From the sequence record PP449093.1: 64,000 bases of DNA; one strand, given 5' to 3'. Within the stretch, counting starts at the first letter, position 1. Every line of letters begins with the position of its first letter. Shown piece after piece: positions 89 to 43,344 of this stretch. The position numbers and the translations under genes are program-made. The notes below the pieces were generated by a model. It had not been told where the DNA came from, searched no databases, and worked only from the letters and a program-made list of their open reading frames with translations. This DNA is from Escherichia coli phage phiS.

Positions 89-1912
89 ATGACAGATTTT
101 TTGATCCTTTCAGATAGGGAACATGTGATTCGCAGACCTCATATGTACGTGGGGAGCACAACGTATGAGGCTCAAAAACGCTTTTTGTTTGGTAAATGGC
201 AGTCTGTATCATACGTTCCCGGACTAGTTAAAATCATTGATGAGATCATCGACAACTCTGTAGACGAGGCGATTCGCACTAATTTTGAATTTGCCAATGT
301 GATTAGCGTCGATATCCAAAACAATATTGTTACGGTAACAGACAACGGTCGCGGTATTCCTCAACATATGGTTACTACACCAGAGGGCACGCAGATTCCG
401 CAACCTGTAGCCGCATGGACACGAACAAAAGCAGGGTCTAACTTTGATGATACCAATCGATTAACGCAAGGGATGAACGGTGTTGGGTCGTCGTTGTCAA
501 ATTTCTTTAGCGATTGGTTTACTGGTGTGACCTGTGACGGTGAAACAGAAATGACCGTTCAATGCACAAACGGTGCTGAAAATATCACATGGTCATCAAA
601 ACCATCAAAATTGAAGGGAACGAAGGTTACATTTTGTCCAGACTTCGACCACTTCGAAGGTTATATGATGGACAACTCTGTTTTAGATATTGTTCATGAT
701 CGTCTGCAATCATTGAGCGTAATCTTTCCTAAGATCACGTTTAAGTTTAATGGTAAACGTATTGTTAGTAAGTTCAAGGATTATGCTAAACTATACAATG
801 ATGATCCGTTTGTCATTGAAGATAAAAACTTCTCACTTGCCCTAGTTCCTGCGGTCGAGGGAGAAGGTTTTAAATCAGTATCCTTTGCTAATGGTCTGTT
901 TACCAAAAACGGGGGAACACACGTAGACTACGTGACAGATGATCTTTGTGAAGAGATTGTAAAACGAATCAAGAAAGAATATAAGGTTGATGTTACTAAA
1001 GCTGCGGTTAAGTCTGGATTGACCTGTATTCTTATTGTTCGTGAATTGCCAAACCTCCGTTTTGATTCACAGACAAAAGAACGATTGACTAATCCAACTG
1101 GTGATATCAAGCGTCATATTGATCTTGATTTTAAAAAGCTGGCTAAAGTCATTGCGAAGAAAGAAAACATTATCATGCCTATTATTGCTGTAGTCCTGGC
1201 ACGCAAAGAGGCAGCAGATAAAGCGGCAGCGACTAAGGCAGCAAAGGCAGCAAAACGGGCTAAGGTAGCAAAACACGTTAAAGCTAACCTTATTGGAACT
1301 GACGCAGAAACTACCCTGTTTTTGACGGAAGGTGATTCCGCGATCAACTATCTGATCTCTGTACGTGATCAAGATTTACATGGAGGTTTCCCGTTGCGAG
1401 GCAAAACTCTTACAACGTGGGAACAACCGGAGGCAAAGATCGTTAAGAACGCCGAAATTTTTAACATCATGGCGATCACTGGCTTGCAATTTGGTGTTGA
1501 TGCATTGGAAGTTATGCAATACAAAAATATTGCGATTATGACCGACGCTGATACTGACGGGATCGGGTCTATTAAACCTAGTCTGATCTCTTTCTTTGCA
1601 CGTTGGCCTGAATTGTTCGAAGATGGACGAATCCGGTTTATCAAAACACCTATTATCATTGCTGAACCAAAGAAAGGTGATGATGTTCGATGGTATTATG
1701 ACCTAGAAGAGTTCGAGAACGACCGAGATAATATCAAAGGTTACAACATTCGATATATCAAAGGTTTAGCATCGCTCACAGAATCAGACTATCATCGCGT
1801 GATCAACGATCCTGTCATGGAGATCATCACGTTACCGGAAAACTATAAAGAGCTATTCGATTTGCTCTATAGTGAAGATGCAGATCAGCGCAAAATTTGG
1901 ATGCAATCATAA
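89..1912 (+). CDS. 39: DNA topoisomerase II large subunit (GyrB-like), unsplit gp39
   Basis: 607-aa ORF; N-terminal region resembles T4 gp39 from memory; length covers T4 gene 39 plus gene 60 as one frame. Confidence 0.9.
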   Translation: MTDFLILSDREHVIRRPHMYVGSTTYEAQKRFLFGKWQSVSYVPGLVKIIDEIIDNSVDEAIRTNFEFANVISVDIQNNIVTVTDNGRGIPQHMVTTPEGTQIPQPVAAWTRTKAGSNFDDTNRLTQGMNGVGSSLSNFFSDWFTGVTCDGETEMTVQCTNGAENITWSSKPSKLKGTKVTFCPDFDHFEGYMMDNSVLDIVHDRLQSLSVIFPKITFKFNGKRIVSKFKDYAKLYNDDPFVIEDKNFSLALVPAVEGEGFKSVSFANGLFTKNGGTHVDYVTDDLCEEIVKRIKKEYKVDVTKAAVKSGLTCILIVRELPNLRFDSQTKERLTNPTGDIKRHIDLDFKKLAKVIAKKENIIMPIIAVVLARKEAADKAAATKAAKAAKRAKVAKHVKANLIGTDAETTLFLTEGDSAINYLISVRDQDLHGGFPLRGKTLTTWEQPEAKIVKNAEIFNIMAITGLQFGVDALEVMQYKNIAIMTDADTDGIGSIKPSLISFFARWPELFEDGRIRFIKTPIIIAEPKKGDDVRWYYDLEEFENDRDNIKGYNIRYIKGLASLTESDYHRVINDPVMEIITLPENYKELFDLLYSEDADQRKIWMQS

Positions 1913-1915
1913 CAC

Positions 1916-1943
1916 TTGACATACAAGGGAGATTCTCTATAAT
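1916..1943 (+). promoter_or_regulatory. sigma70-like early promoter (TTGACA, 16 nt spacer, TATAAT) with GGGAGA/TCTCCC dyad around the -10
   Basis: TTGACA at 1916-1921, TATAAT at 1938-1943; inverted repeat flanks the -10. Confidence 0.6.
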
Positions 1944-1977
1944 GGGAGTCTCCCTTTTCTTTTATGAGGATTTAATA

Positions 1978-2277
1978 ATGAGCAAAAAGAATAACATGAT
2001 GATGAGTATGGCAAAGTTCATGGAAGCAGACCTGATCAAAAATACAGTACAGCATGAACGCCAGCGCGAAGCCGCAGTGATTGCAGAACAAGGTTTTCAG
2101 GTTATCCGCAATCCACCTAAAGACACGGTTAAATCGAAATACAGAGACGATCTGAAAGACCATGAAGTACGGGAACTGGTTAATGATCTGCGTGACATTG
2201 CCATCAAATATCATGGTTATCAGTGCTTACGAGAACTGATCGCAGAGCGAGTAATGGACGCACTGAAAAAAGATTAA
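1978..2277 (+). CDS. hypothetical early protein (99 aa)
   Basis: ATG 12 nt after GAGGA; in frame with ORF-track 1897..2277, whose start lies inside the promoter. Confidence 0.55.
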   Translation: MSKKNNMMMSMAKFMEADLIKNTVQHERQREAAVIAEQGFQVIRNPPKDTVKSKYRDDLKDHEVRELVNDLRDIAIKYHGYQCLRELIAERVMDALKKD

Positions 2278-2284
2278 AAATCTG

Positions 2285-2313
2285 TTGACACTGGATCGGG
2301 GATATATCATAAT
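2285..2313 (+). promoter_or_regulatory. sigma70-like early promoter (TTGACA, 17 nt spacer, CATAAT)
   Basis: TTGACA 2285-2290, CATAAT 2308-2313; GGGGA/TCCCC dyad flanks the -10. Confidence 0.6.
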
Positions 2314-2343
2314 GTCCCCATCAAAAACAAAAGGTTGACTTAT

Positions 2344-2538
2344 ATGAAACCGTTTAAGAATGAAGAAACTCAAAAATTTTGTGAAAAAATTGCAGAAATC
2401 TACTTGACAGGGGATAAGGAAAAAGCTAATATTATGTTCAAAGAGTCGGTTTCCATGATGAAAGTAGCACGCTGGGAACTGATCGCAATGCAAGACCAAA
2501 TTCGTTATCTAGTAACAAAGGAGAATCAAAATGCGTAA
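2344..2538 (+). CDS. hypothetical early protein (64 aa)
   Basis: ATG after AAAAGG; ORF-track start at 2335 is a TTG inside the promoter region. Confidence 0.5.
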   Translation: MKPFKNEETQKFCEKIAEIYLTGDKEKANIMFKESVSMMKVARWELIAMQDQIRYLVTKENQNA

Positions 2539-2725
2539 CCATTACATCTAACTGGCAAGCCGTAAAGTTTCAGACCTGAAAGGCGTAATTGCTTACTATG
2601 AAGAAGTCCTGAAAAACAAAATTGCTGATTGGGAACGTAAAGAATACAGCAAGTGCTTAGAGAAAAGCCGCGCTGAACTGGTTGACGCAGAAGCCCATCT
2701 GCAATGGGTGATTGAAAATGTATAA
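2531..2725 (+). pseudogene. small ORF with consensus SD+ATG, in-frame TAA at codon 7, then a 58-codon open frame
   Basis: GGAGAATCAAAATG at 2518-2533; TAA at 2549-2551; downstream frame open to 2725 with no ATG. Confidence 0.3.
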
Positions 2726-2735
2726 GGAGTAGAAA

Positions 2736-2993
2736 ATGAATAGAAGTTTTGATTTTATGTTCGCCAAGTATCATCGAGACAAGAAATCGATGGACCTGTT
2801 TATGAAATGTCTGAGGTATGAATATGCGCACCTTCGTAAACACAAAATTGACCCGCAAGTTTCCTACGAAAACATCAAGAAATATGCGAAAGAAGTGATT
2901 GACAACGATTGCACCGTGACATATAATGCGTTTATTGATTTATGGGCGTGGGATGTAATCTACGCAGAGATGGACAAAGAAGATTTTAATTAA
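2736..2993 (+). CDS. hypothetical early protein (85 aa)
   Basis: ORF with AAGGAG SD. Confidence 0.55.
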   Translation: MNRSFDFMFAKYHRDKKSMDLFMKCLRYEYAHLRKHKIDPQVSYENIKKYAKEVIDNDCTVTYNAFIDLWAWDVIYAEMDKEDFN

Positions 2994-3007
2994 GTGAGGA
3001 TTATATT

Positions 3008-5116
3008 ATGAAAATGCATATTGATAATGAAGAAGTATTTGGTAGTGACCTGAGCGGTGCGGTTGATTTTTCACTGAAAGCAAGTAGCAAGGCTTTTATG
3101 GTGCTTTCTAAGAATACCTATCAATATTGTGAGCGTGCTTGCGTCCGTGAATATTCATGTAATGCTACCGACACTCACAAAGAAGCCGGAACCTTAGACC
3201 GTCCGTTTGATATTCATTTACCGACTGCAATCGAACCGTATTTTTCTGTGCGTGATTATGGTACTGGTATTCCGTCTAAGAAAGAATTAGAACAACTGTT
3301 TACGGTTTACTTTGAATCAACAAAAGACCAGACTAATGACTATATCGGATCTTTTGGTTTAGGTGCGAAGTCTGCGTATAGCTATACCGACACCTTTACA
3401 ATCGTAAACTATTACAATGGTCGCGCTTATGGCTTTACAGCATTTGTGCAAAACTCTATGCCGAAAATGGTGCAGATTTTCGACGAACCGACCTATGAAG
3501 ACAATGGTCTGAAAATCACTATTCCGGTGAAAGAAAAAGACATTCAGACATGGCATCGAGAAGCGCAATTTGTACTGCGTCATTTTGGGGAACACAAACC
3601 TAATATCAATGCAATCGAAATTAATTATTTCCCTAGCTTTGATAATTATTATGTGTGTAATGGGCGTGATAACGATTCCTATGTAGTATATGCAATCATG
3701 GGTAAGATTCAGTATCCGATCCCGTATGAATATGTTCGCGGAACATGGTTAGAAGCTGTAAACCGCCAGCACCAGACCATTTACATTAATTTTGAGTTGG
3801 GTGATCTGGACCTGATGCCATCGCGTGAAGAAGTTCACTTGTCAATTGAGACTAAAGCGAACATCGAAAAACGTATTGCAGAAATCAATGAAATGATGTT
3901 GGAAAAGGTCAAAGAGAAGATCGCCAACATTAAAACAGAGCGTAAACTTGCGCAATTTATGAGCGAGTATTCATCGACTCAACGCAATATTATTAGCAAG
4001 ATGGGTAAGATCGGACAATGGGATGATCCGGTAGCAATCTATAATAAGTTTGTGAATGCGGGTAAAGATTCGCCTAATGACGTAGAAGGTCAGGTGTATA
4101 CTCTGTATCGTACTCGTCACACAATCAGTAAATTGCGCCCTGCTTTCGTTAGAAGTCAATACAACATTACGCATTTTGTATGGATGCATAAAGAAGATAT
4201 TCTGTGTGTAATTGATGATACCGATAAACCGAAACTGCGTGCACTGACTCTTAACGGCATGGTCCAGGAATACGGAATCAATAAAAAGGTACTTGTGTTC
4301 CGTCAGCGCAACGAAAAACATATGGAGACTTTCGAGTACATCAAACAGTATTATGATGATTCTGAAATGACCGTGATTAAAGTGTCTGAGGCCGATGATC
4401 TGCGTGCTAAAGCAGTTAAACCGGAGAAGACCGAGCGTACACAACATGAAGCGACTCCTAAGCTGCCTAACGTGTATATCATGGAAAAGATTGGTGACAG
4501 TTGGCATAAAACCAGCCATCACATGAAAGCGGCAGAGATTCGCGAGTTATCAGGCTTGCACATGTTCCGCGTAGGTGATGCATTCGAAAGCCGTAGTCGT
4601 AAATCGATCCATAGTGAAAATACATTACACACGGCGCTTGACTACTTCGGGGTAACAAAGTATATTATTACCCGTAACGAGACACAAAAATATCTCGTTG
4701 ACGAACAATTGGAATGTGCGCTAGAATTTGTTCGCGGTAAGCTGGCTGGTCTGGCTAAGAAGGTTAAGACCAATCATCTGGGGTATGGCGAATATCTGGG
4801 TGTGATCACTATGTTGTTTCATGACGATGAACTAGAACGCTGTGTTCCAGAATTTATTGACAGACTGTACGGTCGTCATTATAATAAAGAGGTTTCCAAG
4901 TTACTCCTTCGCACCCGTTGGATTATGGACGAAGAAACTAAAAAGATTTGTGATGAAAAATTCACGGCAGCAAACGAACGAATTAAAGCAGTTTGTGCGA
5001 AGTTTAAAGAGAATAGCCCGTTACTGTATGATATTGTAGATAACTGGTATCGTATTCTGCATAACGACAAACGCGCACAAGACTTTATGAAACTGGTTAA
5101 GAATGTTAAATTTTAA
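3008..5116 (+). CDS. rIIA: rIIA protector-from-prophage-exclusion protein (GHKL ATPase-like)
   Basis: 702-aa ORF; histidine-kinase-like ATPase motifs (DYGTGIP, GSFGLGAKS); sits between gp39 and rIIB as in T4. Confidence 0.85.
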   Translation: MKMHIDNEEVFGSDLSGAVDFSLKASSKAFMVLSKNTYQYCERACVREYSCNATDTHKEAGTLDRPFDIHLPTAIEPYFSVRDYGTGIPSKKELEQLFTVYFESTKDQTNDYIGSFGLGAKSAYSYTDTFTIVNYYNGRAYGFTAFVQNSMPKMVQIFDEPTYEDNGLKITIPVKEKDIQTWHREAQFVLRHFGEHKPNINAIEINYFPSFDNYYVCNGRDNDSYVVYAIMGKIQYPIPYEYVRGTWLEAVNRQHQTIYINFELGDLDLMPSREEVHLSIETKANIEKRIAEINEMMLEKVKEKIANIKTERKLAQFMSEYSSTQRNIISKMGKIGQWDDPVAIYNKFVNAGKDSPNDVEGQVYTLYRTRHTISKLRPAFVRSQYNITHFVWMHKEDILCVIDDTDKPKLRALTLNGMVQEYGINKKVLVFRQRNEKHMETFEYIKQYYDDSEMTVIKVSEADDLRAKAVKPEKTERTQHEATPKLPNVYIMEKIGDSWHKTSHHMKAAEIRELSGLHMFRVGDAFESRSRKSIHSENTLHTALDYFGVTKYIITRNETQKYLVDEQLECALEFVRGKLAGLAKKVKTNHLGYGEYLGVITMLFHDDELERCVPEFIDRLYGRHYNKEVSKLLLRTRWIMDEETKKICDEKFTAANERIKAVCAKFKENSPLLYDIVDNWYRILHNDKRAQDFMKLVKNVKF

Positions 5117-15441: not shown

Positions 15442-18342
15442 TTAGAATTTAAAATATTTACTAATTTTGCGAGCAATTTTAGTGAAGAAAGGAGTTTTCA
15501 ATTCTTTAATTTCTTCACTCATTTCCTGAATAGCCTTAATTAAAAGAGCATTCACAGCAGAGTTAGAAATTGTCAGAACATCGTCTGGATTATCAAGATT
15601 GCCAACCTTTGAAGATTTTACAGCTTCCGGTAATATTTCTTGTAAATCCTGTGCGATAATGCCGATCTCGTGACCGATAATTTCACGGTCTTTAAGAGAT
15701 TTAACTTTATCGTAAGTTTTCACTTTCAGTTTGCCAATTAAACTTAACGCATTTCCTGTATAATCTTCTATATTGTCTTTAAGGCGACGATCTGAACGAA
15801 TATACACATCGTTAAAGCTACCGTTTCCGGTTGCGTTAAATTCACCGCTTGCGTGGAATTGGAACTCCCCAGCTTGAACATGAAGAACAGCGGCTGCGGT
15901 ATTATTACCATCACCGGGACAATGAACGTCCATAGCAGCGATATATTGACGCCCCCAATCAACCGCTTTCCAAACAGCATGAGCACTGTCAATACTTTTC
16001 TGGCAGTCAACCAACAAACCAGCAGGGCGGTCTCTCCATGAAACATATGCACCACCATCAACTTCACCACGGATAAGTCCTTGATCTGCGGCATAAGGAA
16101 CACGCCCTTCCAGTTGAATCATTGCGCCCTTAAAGTGATGACTAAATGGTCCACCGTGGTTATTGCGAATATGTAAAATACCCTCATCGGTCGCCCAAAT
16201 AACAGCCTTTTCTGTTTCGCTAGCATCTCTAAACCAGATATGGCGTGCACCAGTTGAGTTTTTGATGGTTATTCCATTAGGTCCACGCACGGTCAAAGCA
16301 CCGGATACATCAAATAAAACGGTGTCATCTGTTCTACGTTCCGTATAGAAGTGATAACCTTTGGAATCACCGATTTCCATTACTGCCGCGCGTCCAACTT
16401 CTGAATTTCCCCAATTGTTGATAGAGAATCGTTCAGAGCTATTATTCATCTGATTTAGGTATAATGTACCGTCAGTGAAGGTTTCGCCAAAGAATCTGGT
16501 TTTAACGCCGTTAGTACCCCCCACGCGTTCAAATTCAGCCAAGAAACCTTTGGAATCTCGCATACTCAAAACGTTATTGCGTCCTGTATTACTGTTACCC
16601 CAATGGATTAATTCAATATAGTCCATTGACTGACGAGACCCTGATCTAAACACCATATTATCTTCGATGCGGGTGCTACCATCAATTCCCAGATGTAAAC
16701 AGCGTGCGGTAGCTGTGCCACCTAGATCTAATCCACCTTCGGCGAAATCATAGCTGAATGGTCTACGAGTATTCCAATTTCCAAAAGAATCTTTTAAATC
16801 GGTAGTCAGTATATGGAAACTAGTACCATCATTTCTAAAAATTAAGCCATAATTGCCACCTTTAACAGCCAAACGAGCATTTTCAGATAATGCAACTTCG
16901 CTATTCATTACAATTTTCTGGCCTTTACCGCCAGTAATATGCAATTCACCGTTTTCGATCAAGTTTATTGAGTTTTGACCGTTATCGTTCCACCAAATAA
17001 AATCTTTGGTCGTCAAATCACCAAAACCAAACCAGCCATTACGAACATCTTGACCAGTGCGATAATCCATAAAATTAAAATGGCTTGCTTCGTTTGGTCC
17101 TCGACGAATATCAATACCAGCATTAGAACCGGAACCTAAGCCACCATCGATGGTCAATCTACGAATATGCAAACCGGTTACAGCCGAAAGCAATAATTGT
17201 TGGGTTACATCGGTATATCCAGTAGCAAGACGATAATTTTGGTCATCAACACTTTCGTGCCAGATAGTGGCAGGACCAGAGCTTCTAAACCGACGTAACA
17301 TCTTTTTAGCATTTGTCGGTTGTTCGTTCATATGCTCAATGTCATATTGTCCTTGATGGTTGCCAGCAAAATTTAATGTTCCACGGTTACTGAAACTGTT
17401 AAAAGAGCGTATTGTATATGCATCATAGATATGATCAGCTACAGGTTTTTCGCCTACATATTCAGGTCGATCAAGTACAGTTAAATTAACATCGCTGGAC
17501 GCTTGATATTCAGCCATTACCATATTAGTAAATTCGAAGTAACATGCATAGATATCATAAGTGTCATCACCTGTATTAATGGCACAAAATTGATTTTCGT
17601 AACCGGAAACATGATGATACGCAACAAAGTTAATTCCTTTAGGCGAACCGTTGCTAGTCCTTATAACAAGTTCAATAATATTACATTGTCCAGTTCGTCC
17701 TACGTTCCACCCATTTCCACCAATCAATCTAATTTTCAAGCCACGTCCGTCATTTTGCGGAATAAAGGCGGTAGCAATTTTAAACCATCCACTTTCTACA
17801 CCAAAGTTGATGGTCTTCTGGAACATCCGATCTACTTCTTGCTTGCTGTATACATTCAATTCCGACGGACTAGGCTTATCTCCTTCGTGATACATGCGAT
17901 ATGAATATGCTAATACACCATCGGCATTATAACCATAGGTTTTTACAGTAGGGACAATGCTAGAACCATAAGTAAAATCAAACCCACGAGCATGATTGAT
18001 ACCGCTAGGATGGGGAATATGCAAAGCAAGTGCTAGATGACCATCCATATCATTAGTGCGAAATGCCCCGAATTTGTCAAGATTTCGTGCGGTCGGATCA
18101 TCGAAATAGTTTGCGGTATTACTCCACACAAGGTCACCCACAACCACGCGACCGTTTACATTAAAGCCTTTGTCATAAACAGGAGGGCAGCTTAAATTAA
18201 CAATTTGCCCATCATCATTTTTTGTAAGCAGATATTGGTCTGCTAAGTTAATTGCCAACTCTCCCGGATTCATCGTACCAGCATCCGGTTTACGTCCGGC
18301 TGCGCTAGTGCGTTTAAACTGGATTCTGTTTAAATCTGCCAT
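15442..18342 (-). CDS. 37: long tail fibre distal subunit gp37 with C-terminal intramolecular-chaperone-like domain
   Basis: N-terminus matches T4 gp37 pattern (M.DL..IQFKR...G..P...GELAINL.D); C-terminal SDRRLKDNIED motif resembles peptidase S74 self-cleaving chaperone domains. Confidence 0.85.
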   Translation of the reverse strand: MADLNRIQFKRTSAAGRKPDAGTMNPGELAINLADQYLLTKNDDGQIVNLSCPPVYDKGFNVNGRVVVGDLVWSNTANYFDDPTARNLDKFGAFRTNDMDGHLALALHIPHPSGINHARGFDFTYGSSIVPTVKTYGYNADGVLAYSYRMYHEGDKPSPSELNVYSKQEVDRMFQKTINFGVESGWFKIATAFIPQNDGRGLKIRLIGGNGWNVGRTGQCNIIELVIRTSNGSPKGINFVAYHHVSGYENQFCAINTGDDTYDIYACYFEFTNMVMAEYQASSDVNLTVLDRPEYVGEKPVADHIYDAYTIRSFNSFSNRGTLNFAGNHQGQYDIEHMNEQPTNAKKMLRRFRSSGPATIWHESVDDQNYRLATGYTDVTQQLLLSAVTGLHIRRLTIDGGLGSGSNAGIDIRRGPNEASHFNFMDYRTGQDVRNGWFGFGDLTTKDFIWWNDNGQNSINLIENGELHITGGKGQKIVMNSEVALSENARLAVKGGNYGLIFRNDGTSFHILTTDLKDSFGNWNTRRPFSYDFAEGGLDLGGTATARCLHLGIDGSTRIEDNMVFRSGSRQSMDYIELIHWGNSNTGRNNVLSMRDSKGFLAEFERVGGTNGVKTRFFGETFTDGTLYLNQMNNSSERFSINNWGNSEVGRAAVMEIGDSKGYHFYTERRTDDTVLFDVSGALTVRGPNGITIKNSTGARHIWFRDASETEKAVIWATDEGILHIRNNHGGPFSHHFKGAMIQLEGRVPYAADQGLIRGEVDGGAYVSWRDRPAGLLVDCQKSIDSAHAVWKAVDWGRQYIAAMDVHCPGDGNNTAAAVLHVQAGEFQFHASGEFNATGNGSFNDVYIRSDRRLKDNIEDYTGNALSLIGKLKVKTYDKVKSLKDREIIGHEIGIIAQDLQEILPEAVKSSKVGNLDNPDDVLTISNSAVNALLIKAIQEMSEEIKELKTPFFTKIARKISKYFKF

Positions 18343-28118: not shown

Positions 28119-29066
28119 ATGAACATTTTTCGTCGTCAAGATTCTTCCAAACTGCAAGCTCAACTGGCAGCACTGAAAGGTAGCAACGGCTTCTCCAAAG
28201 AAGATCCGAAAGAGTGGAAGATTAAGACTGATGCAGCAGGTAACGGTGAAGCCCTGATTCGCTTCCTGCCGTCTAAGACAGAAGACGGTCTGCCGATTGT
28301 GAAACTGGTAAACCATTCCTTCAAAGTTAATGGCAAATGGTATTGGGAAAACTGCTCCAGCACCCACGGTGATTTTGATTCTTGCCCTGTGTGCAAATAT
28401 ATTAACGAAAAAGATCTGTACAATACCGATAAAACAGAATGGCAACTGATTAAGCGTAAAGCCTCTTACTACGCAAATATTCTGGTACTGAAAGATCCTC
28501 AAGCACCAGAAAATGAAGGTAATGTATTCAAATTCCGCTTCGGTCAGAAAATTTATGATAAGATCGTTGCAATGGTGAACGTGAATACCGACATGGGCGA
28601 AGTTCCGGTAGATGTAACTTGTGTGTTCTCCGGTGCTAACTTCCTCCTGAAAGCTAAGAAGGTTGATAAACACCAGAACTATGATGATTCTCGTTTCATG
28701 CAGCAATCACAGCTTCCGAAAATTGAAGACGAAGCATATCAGAAATATCTGATGGAAAACATGGTTGACCTGAGTGAGATTGTAGCGCCTAGCCAGTTTA
28801 AACCGTTCGATGAACTGGAAACCAAATTTAAGAAAACTATGGGCGTTTCTATGGTAGCTGGTGCTGCGGCTTCCAGTGCTGCGGCAGCGATTAACAGCCA
28901 GCTTGACGATTTTGACGCACAGATGAATGCATTCGATTCTGGTATAACCGCAGCTAGCACGGCGTTAGATTCTTCCGCTGATGACCTGATGGCATCTCTG
29001 GACCTGGGTGGCGGTACTTCCTCCGCTTCTGATCTGGATGATCTTGACGCTCTGTTAGGGATGTAA
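28119..29066 (+). CDS. 32: single-stranded DNA-binding protein gp32
   Basis: Resembles T4 gp32 (IRFLPSK, KWY.E.CSSTHGD.DS, CKYI...DLYNTD, PENEG.VFK.RFG.KI.DKI.AM, acidic Ala-rich C-terminus). Confidence 0.9.
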   Translation: MNIFRRQDSSKLQAQLAALKGSNGFSKEDPKEWKIKTDAAGNGEALIRFLPSKTEDGLPIVKLVNHSFKVNGKWYWENCSSTHGDFDSCPVCKYINEKDLYNTDKTEWQLIKRKASYYANILVLKDPQAPENEGNVFKFRFGQKIYDKIVAMVNVNTDMGEVPVDVTCVFSGANFLLKAKKVDKHQNYDDSRFMQQSQLPKIEDEAYQKYLMENMVDLSEIVAPSQFKPFDELETKFKKTMGVSMVAGAAASSAAAAINSQLDDFDAQMNAFDSGITAASTALDSSADDLMASLDLGGGTSSASDLDDLDALLGM

Positions 29067-42837: not shown

Positions 42838-43344
42838 ATGTTGTCACAAACTTACATGCAGATCGCCTATCTGATCGCAAAGAACTCTAAATGTGTTTCG
42901 TGGAAGGTAGGCGCACTGATCGAAAAAGACGGGCGAATCATTTCTACTGGATTTAACGGAACTCCAGCAGGGCAAGTAAATTGTAGCTGTCATGCACATA
43001 AAAACGGTTGGCTGGATGATGACGGCAAAATGATCCCAGAAAAACGACCAGAGCATAGTGCATGGTCACAGAAAAACGAGATCCATGCTGAATTAAATGC
43101 TATTTTGTTTGCTGCCCGTAGCGGTGTATCGATTGAAGGCGCTAGTATGTGGTGTACTGCTTCACCGTGTCCAGATTGCGCTAAAGCAATTGCAAACAGT
43201 GGAATTAAACATTTATACTATTGCGACACATATGATCGAAATGGTGGGCGTGATTGGGCTGATATTTTGGATAAAGCCGACATTACGGTTACGCGTATTC
43301 CAAAAGCATTATTGGCTGATTTGAAGGGTATTGATAATGACTGA
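42838..43344 (+). CDS. cd: dCMP deaminase
   Basis: Resembles T4 Cd (SKC.SWKVGA.IEK.GRIISTG.NG.PAG, HAELNAILFAAR.G.SIEGA.M..T.SPCPDCAKAIA.SGIK). Confidence 0.9.
   Translation: MLSQTYMQIAYLIAKNSKCVSWKVGALIEKDGRIISTGFNGTPAGQVNCSCHAHKNGWLDDDGKMIPEKRPEHSAWSQKNEIHAELNAILFAARSGVSIEGASMWCTASPCPDCAKAIANSGIKHLYYCDTYDRNGGRDWADILDKADITVTRIPKALLADLKGIDND

Follow-up and report, generated by a model that had tools for sequence, protein, structure and literature searches.

Two described situations in bacteriophage T4 resemble a frame that opens with sound start signals and is closed again within a few codons. In T4 gene 60, an early stop lies directly after a sense codon and the frame continues beyond it. 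Bypass there goes together with a coding gap, identical take-off and landing codons, a stem-loop, a nascent-peptide signal, and a stop that is maintained among carriers. In T4 ochre mutants, such as those in rII, one base substitution has put UAA into a non-essential gene, and expression then needs a host ochre suppressor tRNA. A further point of comparison is a gene family. RB49 ORF003 (RB49p003, NP_891574.1) is a 195-nt CDS for a hypothetical protein of 64 residues, and the family to which it belongs, phrog_9544, is marked by an uninterrupted frame of about 64 codons.

We examined a frame at positions 2531-2725 (+) of a 64-kb window, meaning the whole stretch of phage DNA that was analyzed. 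A sequence-only reading had described it as a small gene with a ribosome-binding site and an in-frame TAA at codon 7, and the sequence confirms that description. The frame carries an ordinary ochre allele specific to this strain, or possibly a single miscalled base, in an already known conserved hypothetical gene. It shares with T4 gene 60 an early stop directly after a sense codon in a T4-family gene and a frame that continues beyond. It differs in having no coding gap, its sequence being colinear with that of intact orthologs, and in having no identical take-off and landing codons, no stem-loop, no nascent-peptide signal and no conserved stop. It resembles the T4 ochre mutants in carrying a single-base UAA in what may be a non-essential gene, and in that a host ochre suppressor tRNA would be required for expression, but the allele comes from a genome of unknown history and, as far as is known, was not selected in the laboratory. 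RB49 ORF003, the other Krischvirus orthologs and phrog_9544 match it in position, length, frame and start context, with DNA 95-99.5% identical, and the proteins of Cognac and FL04 are 100% identical to that of the window once codon 7 is taken as Glu. The orthologs, however, have GAA where the window copy has TAA, so that no 64-residue protein is possible. With the family's uninterrupted frame broken at codon 7, the window copy counts as a disrupted (pseudogene) allele within the RB49 ORF003 family rather than as a functional member, and it should be annotated as such, neither as a new gene nor as a recoding site.

The locus and its neighbors

The window belongs to Krischvirus, the RB49-like, T4-related phages that infect E. 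coli. Positions 1900-3100 are 97-98.6% identical to 58 Krischvirus records; over a longer span of 25 kb, identity to even the nearest records drops to about 95%, and no second copy of the same isolate was present for comparison in the collections searched. The RB49 gene order (gene 39, RB49p005, RB49p004, RB49p003, RB49p002, rIIA) is matched in the window, and the same arrangement occurs in GEC-3S, Cognac, FL04, KFS-EC and others. RB49p003 is annotated exactly at the matching position, before rIIA. The 2531-2725 frame is the ortholog of RB49 ORF003, an early gene common to the whole genus.

A sigma-70-type early promoter (TTGACA, 17 nt, CATAAT) lies at 2285-2313 (+), matching the consensus at 11 of 12 positions, and GEC-3S carries a promoter annotation at the same place. 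We infer that it likely drives a transcript covering ORF004, ORF003 and ORF002. The upstream gene, at 2344-2538 (+), is the RB49p004 ortholog, a 64-residue member of phrog_5072 that is 98.4% identical to the KFS-EC protein; its TAA (2536-2538) overlaps the start of ORF003 (ATGCGTAA). The downstream gene, at 2726-2993 (+), is the RB49p002 ortholog, an 85-residue member of phrog_15941. Because it has its own GGAG (2726-2729) and ATG (2736), its translation should be independent of the broken ORF003. Within ORF002 and ahead of rIIA stands a perfect 12/12 sigma-70 consensus promoter (2899-2927, +), and transcriptional polarity would therefore reach ORF002 at most.

Two further features of this region were recorded. 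Another perfect 12/12 sigma-70 promoter occupies 1916-1943 (+), overlapped by a 13-bp hairpin with a T-run at 1925-1956, and relatives annotate a promoter and a terminator there. On the opposite strand, a TTG-initiated ORF of 110 codons (2526-2858, -) lies across from ORF003 and ORF002; it is unannotated in the seven relatives whose feature tables cover the stretch and is probably spurious.

Structure of the disrupted frame

Read off the window sequence, the ORF003 frame begins with the Shine-Dalgarno motif GGAG at 2520-2523, followed by a 7-nt spacer and ATG at 2531-2533. Spacing and composition are typical of genes in the window: a Shine-Dalgarno core lies at -17 to -4 in 59 of the 69 mapped genes, with G the most frequent base at -12 to -9. 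The sequence-only reading had called this start context the consensus of the genome; it is indeed typical of the window, although the 14-mer as such is not that consensus. Codons 2-6 are CGT AAC CAT TAC ATC and codon 7 is TAA (2549-2551), leaving a remnant frame at 2531-2551 (+) of ATG plus five sense codons (MRNHYI) before the premature stop. The frame is then stop-free over 2552-2722 and terminates with TAA at 2723-2725, so that the full translation reads MRNHYI, a stop, LASRKVSDLKGVIAYYEEVLKNKIADWERKEYSKCLEKSRAELVDAEAHLQWVIENV, and the natural stop. The open stretch is thus as previously described, although the 58 stop-free codons counted earlier are 57 sense codons plus the stop.

The body of ORF003 (2552-2725, +), comprising codons 8-64 and the natural TAA, encodes the conserved WERKEY core of the protein and is no longer reachable from any start codon. 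The earlier remark that no internal ATG follows the TAA holds for the frame: in-frame ATG, GTG and TTG are all absent past codon 7 until a GTG at codon 60 (2708). Only weak near-cognate starts, CTG at 2552, CTG at 2576 and ATT at 2588, occur downstream of the premature TAA, and internal restart was rejected as an explanation accordingly.

Conservation of ORF003 and the protein it encodes

The coding-like character previously ascribed to the stretch beyond the TAA reflects a conserved gene body. With codon 7 taken as Glu, the ORF003 protein matches phrog_9544 across residues 2-64 (E=2.7e-35), with a more distant match to phrog_7866. By tblastn it is found in 83 phage records overall. It is 92-100% identical in the 58 Krischvirus records, while distant matches at 36-48% identity occur in RB43, RB16, Citrobacter and Klebsiella phages and Yersinia phage JC221. 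The phrog_9544 match and the presence of orthologs in all 58 Krischvirus records rule out a chance ORF. The 70-residue homologs JC221_240 and RB43ORF013c align over their full length, N-terminus included. In that alignment the core W34-E-R-K-E-Y39 is invariant, as are V13 and D15, and the NHY-V/I-E motif, which contains Glu7, is retained in JC221.

Among the 19 relatives read directly, 18 have ORF003 unbroken. The 20 alleles (window plus 19 relatives) show 11 synonymous, 12 non-synonymous and 2 nonsense variant sites, a pattern that fits moderate purifying selection. Judged by these comparisons, ORF003 is a genuine protein-coding gene under constraint. Searches of Pfam, NCBIfam and PDB sequences with the ORF003 protein returned no significant match, and neither PHROG family has an assigned function. 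Modeled by AlphaFold2 from the single sequence, residues 8-64 form one long helix (pLDDT 94.7), too featureless to suggest more than a small protein of coiled-coil type.

One base change at codon 7

The premature stop results from one substitution: at 2549 (+) the window has T where relatives have G, so that GAA (Glu7) is replaced by TAA (ochre). Codon 7 is GAA in every one of the 19 relatives read directly, and in alignment RB49, G2248 and GEC-3S have GAA opposite the TAA of the window. When a 47-nt query spanning 2505-2551 was used, all 58 Krischvirus records matched, each with one mismatch or with a match ending at 2548, and in none of the 58 is this segment identical to the window. A 51-mer was centered on 2549 so that any 28-nt seed necessarily spans the site; with T at the site it had no match in 50,697 phage records, whereas the G version had 35. 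A 26-mer with T was likewise absent from IMG/VR, metagenome contigs and GTDB genomes.

Over the 195 nt of ORF003, G2549T is the sole difference between Cognac and the window, and because nothing else separates the two alleles the mutation must be recent and has undergone no further decay. A recent nonsense mutation giving a pseudogene was among the options raised by the sequence-only reading, and it is this option that the uniform GAA of the relatives and the single-base distance from Cognac support. The arrangement that the same reading had set against it, relatives sharing the TAA and starting separately downstream, is the opposite of what we found, as the TAA is missing in relatives.

A second nonsense allele in the same gene comes from vB_EcoM_G2248 (MK327932.1), in which positions 1076-1078, equivalent to window 2675-2677, carry an independent GAA-to-TAA change at codon 49 of ORF003. 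The product, QBO62158.1, is annotated at 48 residues. Both alleles are GAA-to-TAA ochre changes in one gene, and G2248 too is a sequenced, viable Krischvirus. They differ in what is left: 48 residues, including the WERKEY core, remain in G2248 and may retain function, while the window keeps six. The two independent nonsense alleles, from which alone dispensability is argued, hint that ORF003 may be dispensable for growth on at least some hosts. A literature search on nonsense mutations in Krischvirus returned nothing relevant.

Tests for special decoding of the stop

Several ways in which TAA might acquire another meaning were considered and rejected. TAA terminates 50 of 70 mapped genes, including ORF003 and its upstream neighbor, and in eight cases as TAAC, like the premature stop; no other mapped gene of the window has an internal TAA. 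As the main terminator, TAA has not been reassigned, and the genetic code is therefore standard. A phage-encoded suppressor tRNA was rejected as well, given that ARAGORN found no tRNA genes in the 64-kb window and that RB49-type genomes have none: RB49, phi1 and JSE are each listed with 0 tRNA genes (PMC2993671, Table 2).

The precedent of gene 60, which the sequence-only reading had placed in this neighborhood, does not carry over, because gene 60 is fused to gene 39 in Krischvirus, a genus with neither a split gene 60 nor its coding gap. In the window, the large topoisomerase II subunit (89-1912, +) is one protein of 607 residues, equivalent to T4 gp60 plus gp39, and Phi1 annotates the fused gene as '60+39'. 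Nor is the stop maintained among carriers, since none of the 58 Krischvirus records has it. A bypass in the style of gene 60 was rejected on these grounds: the codons are not matched, there is no stem-loop, the peptide has six residues, and the stop is not conserved.

Alternative explanations

It is highly improbable that recoding, whether by readthrough, hopping or re-initiation past the premature UAA, leaves ORF003 protein at a useful level. The start signals are whole and the downstream frame is undamaged, and candidate routes can be named: near-cognate readthrough of UAA-C, a hop of peptidyl-tRNA-Ile from AUC 2546 to AUU 2588, and re-initiation at CUG 2552 or AUU 2588, the last of these codons being in frame with AAAGG just before it. 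AUC and AUU are decoded by one tRNA-Ile, and a C at the fourth position makes for a weaker stop context in E. coli, in which UAA is the least leaky stop codon. Against recoding stands the fact that the stop is missing in all relatives, which leaves no history in which a stimulatory signal could have evolved. The RNA at 2515-2625 folds worse than shuffled sequences (MFE -13.2 kcal/mol against a mean of -16.4, z=+0.97), with 169 of 200 shuffles folding at least equally well, so that by this comparison there is no stable stem-loop at the candidate take-off site, the stop codon included. Only six residues, MRNHYI, precede the stop, a peptide too short to span the ribosomal exit tunnel or to act as a nascent-peptide signal of the gene 60 type. 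The take-off AUC has no in-frame AUC downstream with which to pair, only AUU at 2588 and 2621, which bears out the earlier observation that no take-off and landing pair is obvious, in that no identical landing codon exists in frame. A hop to AUU 2588 would, moreover, remove residues 7-19, the invariant V13 and D15 among them. Programmed stop-codon readthrough, which usually involves a leaky UGA or UAG whose stimulatory 3' context or structure is shared by relatives, was rejected because the stop here is a UAA, lies in unstructured RNA and is not conserved, and the earlier suggestion of programmed readthrough or bypass finds no support in an unconserved stop, unstructured RNA and the lack of a suppressor tRNA. 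Trace expression through UAA-C readthrough or initiation at CUG 2552 or AUU 2588 is possible. If recoding were true, the locus would offer a natural case of bypass or readthrough that had not evolved for the purpose, yet rescued a newly arisen nonsense mutation in a phage of the T4 family.

The choice then lies mainly in whether the T at 2549 is present in the phage. We consider it likely that this is a real G-to-T nonsense mutation that makes a strain-specific knock-out of ORF003, a pseudogene of very recent origin; both the presence of this base in phage DNA and the lack of a functional protein are points that we infer. A sequencing or assembly error, offered earlier as one option, is kept as a rival and is rather unlikely. 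It would mean that T is a wrong consensus call and that the phage has GAA and an intact ORF003. The T allele is found nowhere else, neither in the 58 Krischvirus records nor in the four collections searched, and an error here would touch one position of a gene otherwise the same as that of Cognac. On the other hand, it would have to be a substitution rather than a homopolymer indel, with flanks (CATCTAACTG) that are not of low complexity, and the allele in G2248 shows that analogous GAA-to-TAA changes do occur in this gene. Nor does the assembly look error-prone. We mapped 81 annotated KFS-EC proteins onto the window, and among the roughly 70 with counterparts there is no frameshift or disrupting stop besides that in ORF003; the sole other stop flagged, in dCMP deaminase, costs three C-terminal residues. 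With no frameshift or broken gene elsewhere in the window, a real mutation is likelier than a sequencing error. The loss might also be adaptive, the knock-out having been selected rather than left by neutral decay, for example as an escape from an abortive-infection or defense trigger or from a cost on the isolation host. Two independent ochre mutations at different GAA codons (7, and 49 in G2248) of a 64-codon gene, among about 20 alleles read, in two phages both viable enough for isolation and sequencing, would suit such a history. Two events, however, are too few for telling selection from chance, and a gene intact in 18 of 19 relatives and conserved in distant genera argues for net purifying selection. 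The family, with its lack of database matches and its PHROG assignments of unknown function, also has no known link to defense. We regard adaptive loss as very unlikely, and take a real nonsense mutation as the preferred reading.

Proposed consequences of the ochre allele

If the nonsense mutation is real, a single G-to-T transversion at 2549 would have turned codon 7 from GAA (Glu) into TAA (ochre). Ribosomes would start at ATG 2531, either through GGAG or by coupling to the upstream gene, whose stop overlaps that ATG, and would terminate after the six residues MRNHYI. For the 57 codons of ORF003 beyond the premature stop there would be no usable start, and translation would stay at trace level at most, leaving about 184 nt untranslated up to ORF002. 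Downstream genes would retain their own signals, namely the ribosome-binding site of ORF002 and the rIIA promoter at 2899-2927. The significance beyond annotation is small, although a natural knock-out could offer a handy starting point for finding the function of ORF003.

Other differences from relatives

Set against KFS-EC, the window is mosaic in gene content. Six small genes that form a block in KFS-EC lack counterparts between about 47293 and 47388, and five further KFS-EC genes lack counterparts, four of them small (one after gp37), the fifth being the gene for an FmdB-like regulator. In KFS-EC this regulator gene is upstream of gene 39, and its place falls at or beyond the window start. 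In megablast, the matches with every relative start only near 206-209, although the gp39 alignment at protein level runs from base 89; positions 1-208, which hold the start of gene 39 and what lies upstream of it, may be a locally divergent or mosaic segment. The distal tail-fiber protein gp37, listed at window coordinates 15496-18342, is only 70% identical to that of KFS-EC. The dCMP deaminase gene (42838-43344, +; stop at 43342-43344) has TGA in place of the KFS-EC CGA at codon 169 of 171, a difference in C-terminal length that is probably harmless. The single-strand DNA-binding protein gp32 (28119-29063, +) begins MNIFRRQ, compared to MFKRQ in KFS-EC, and so has two extra codons at its N-terminus.
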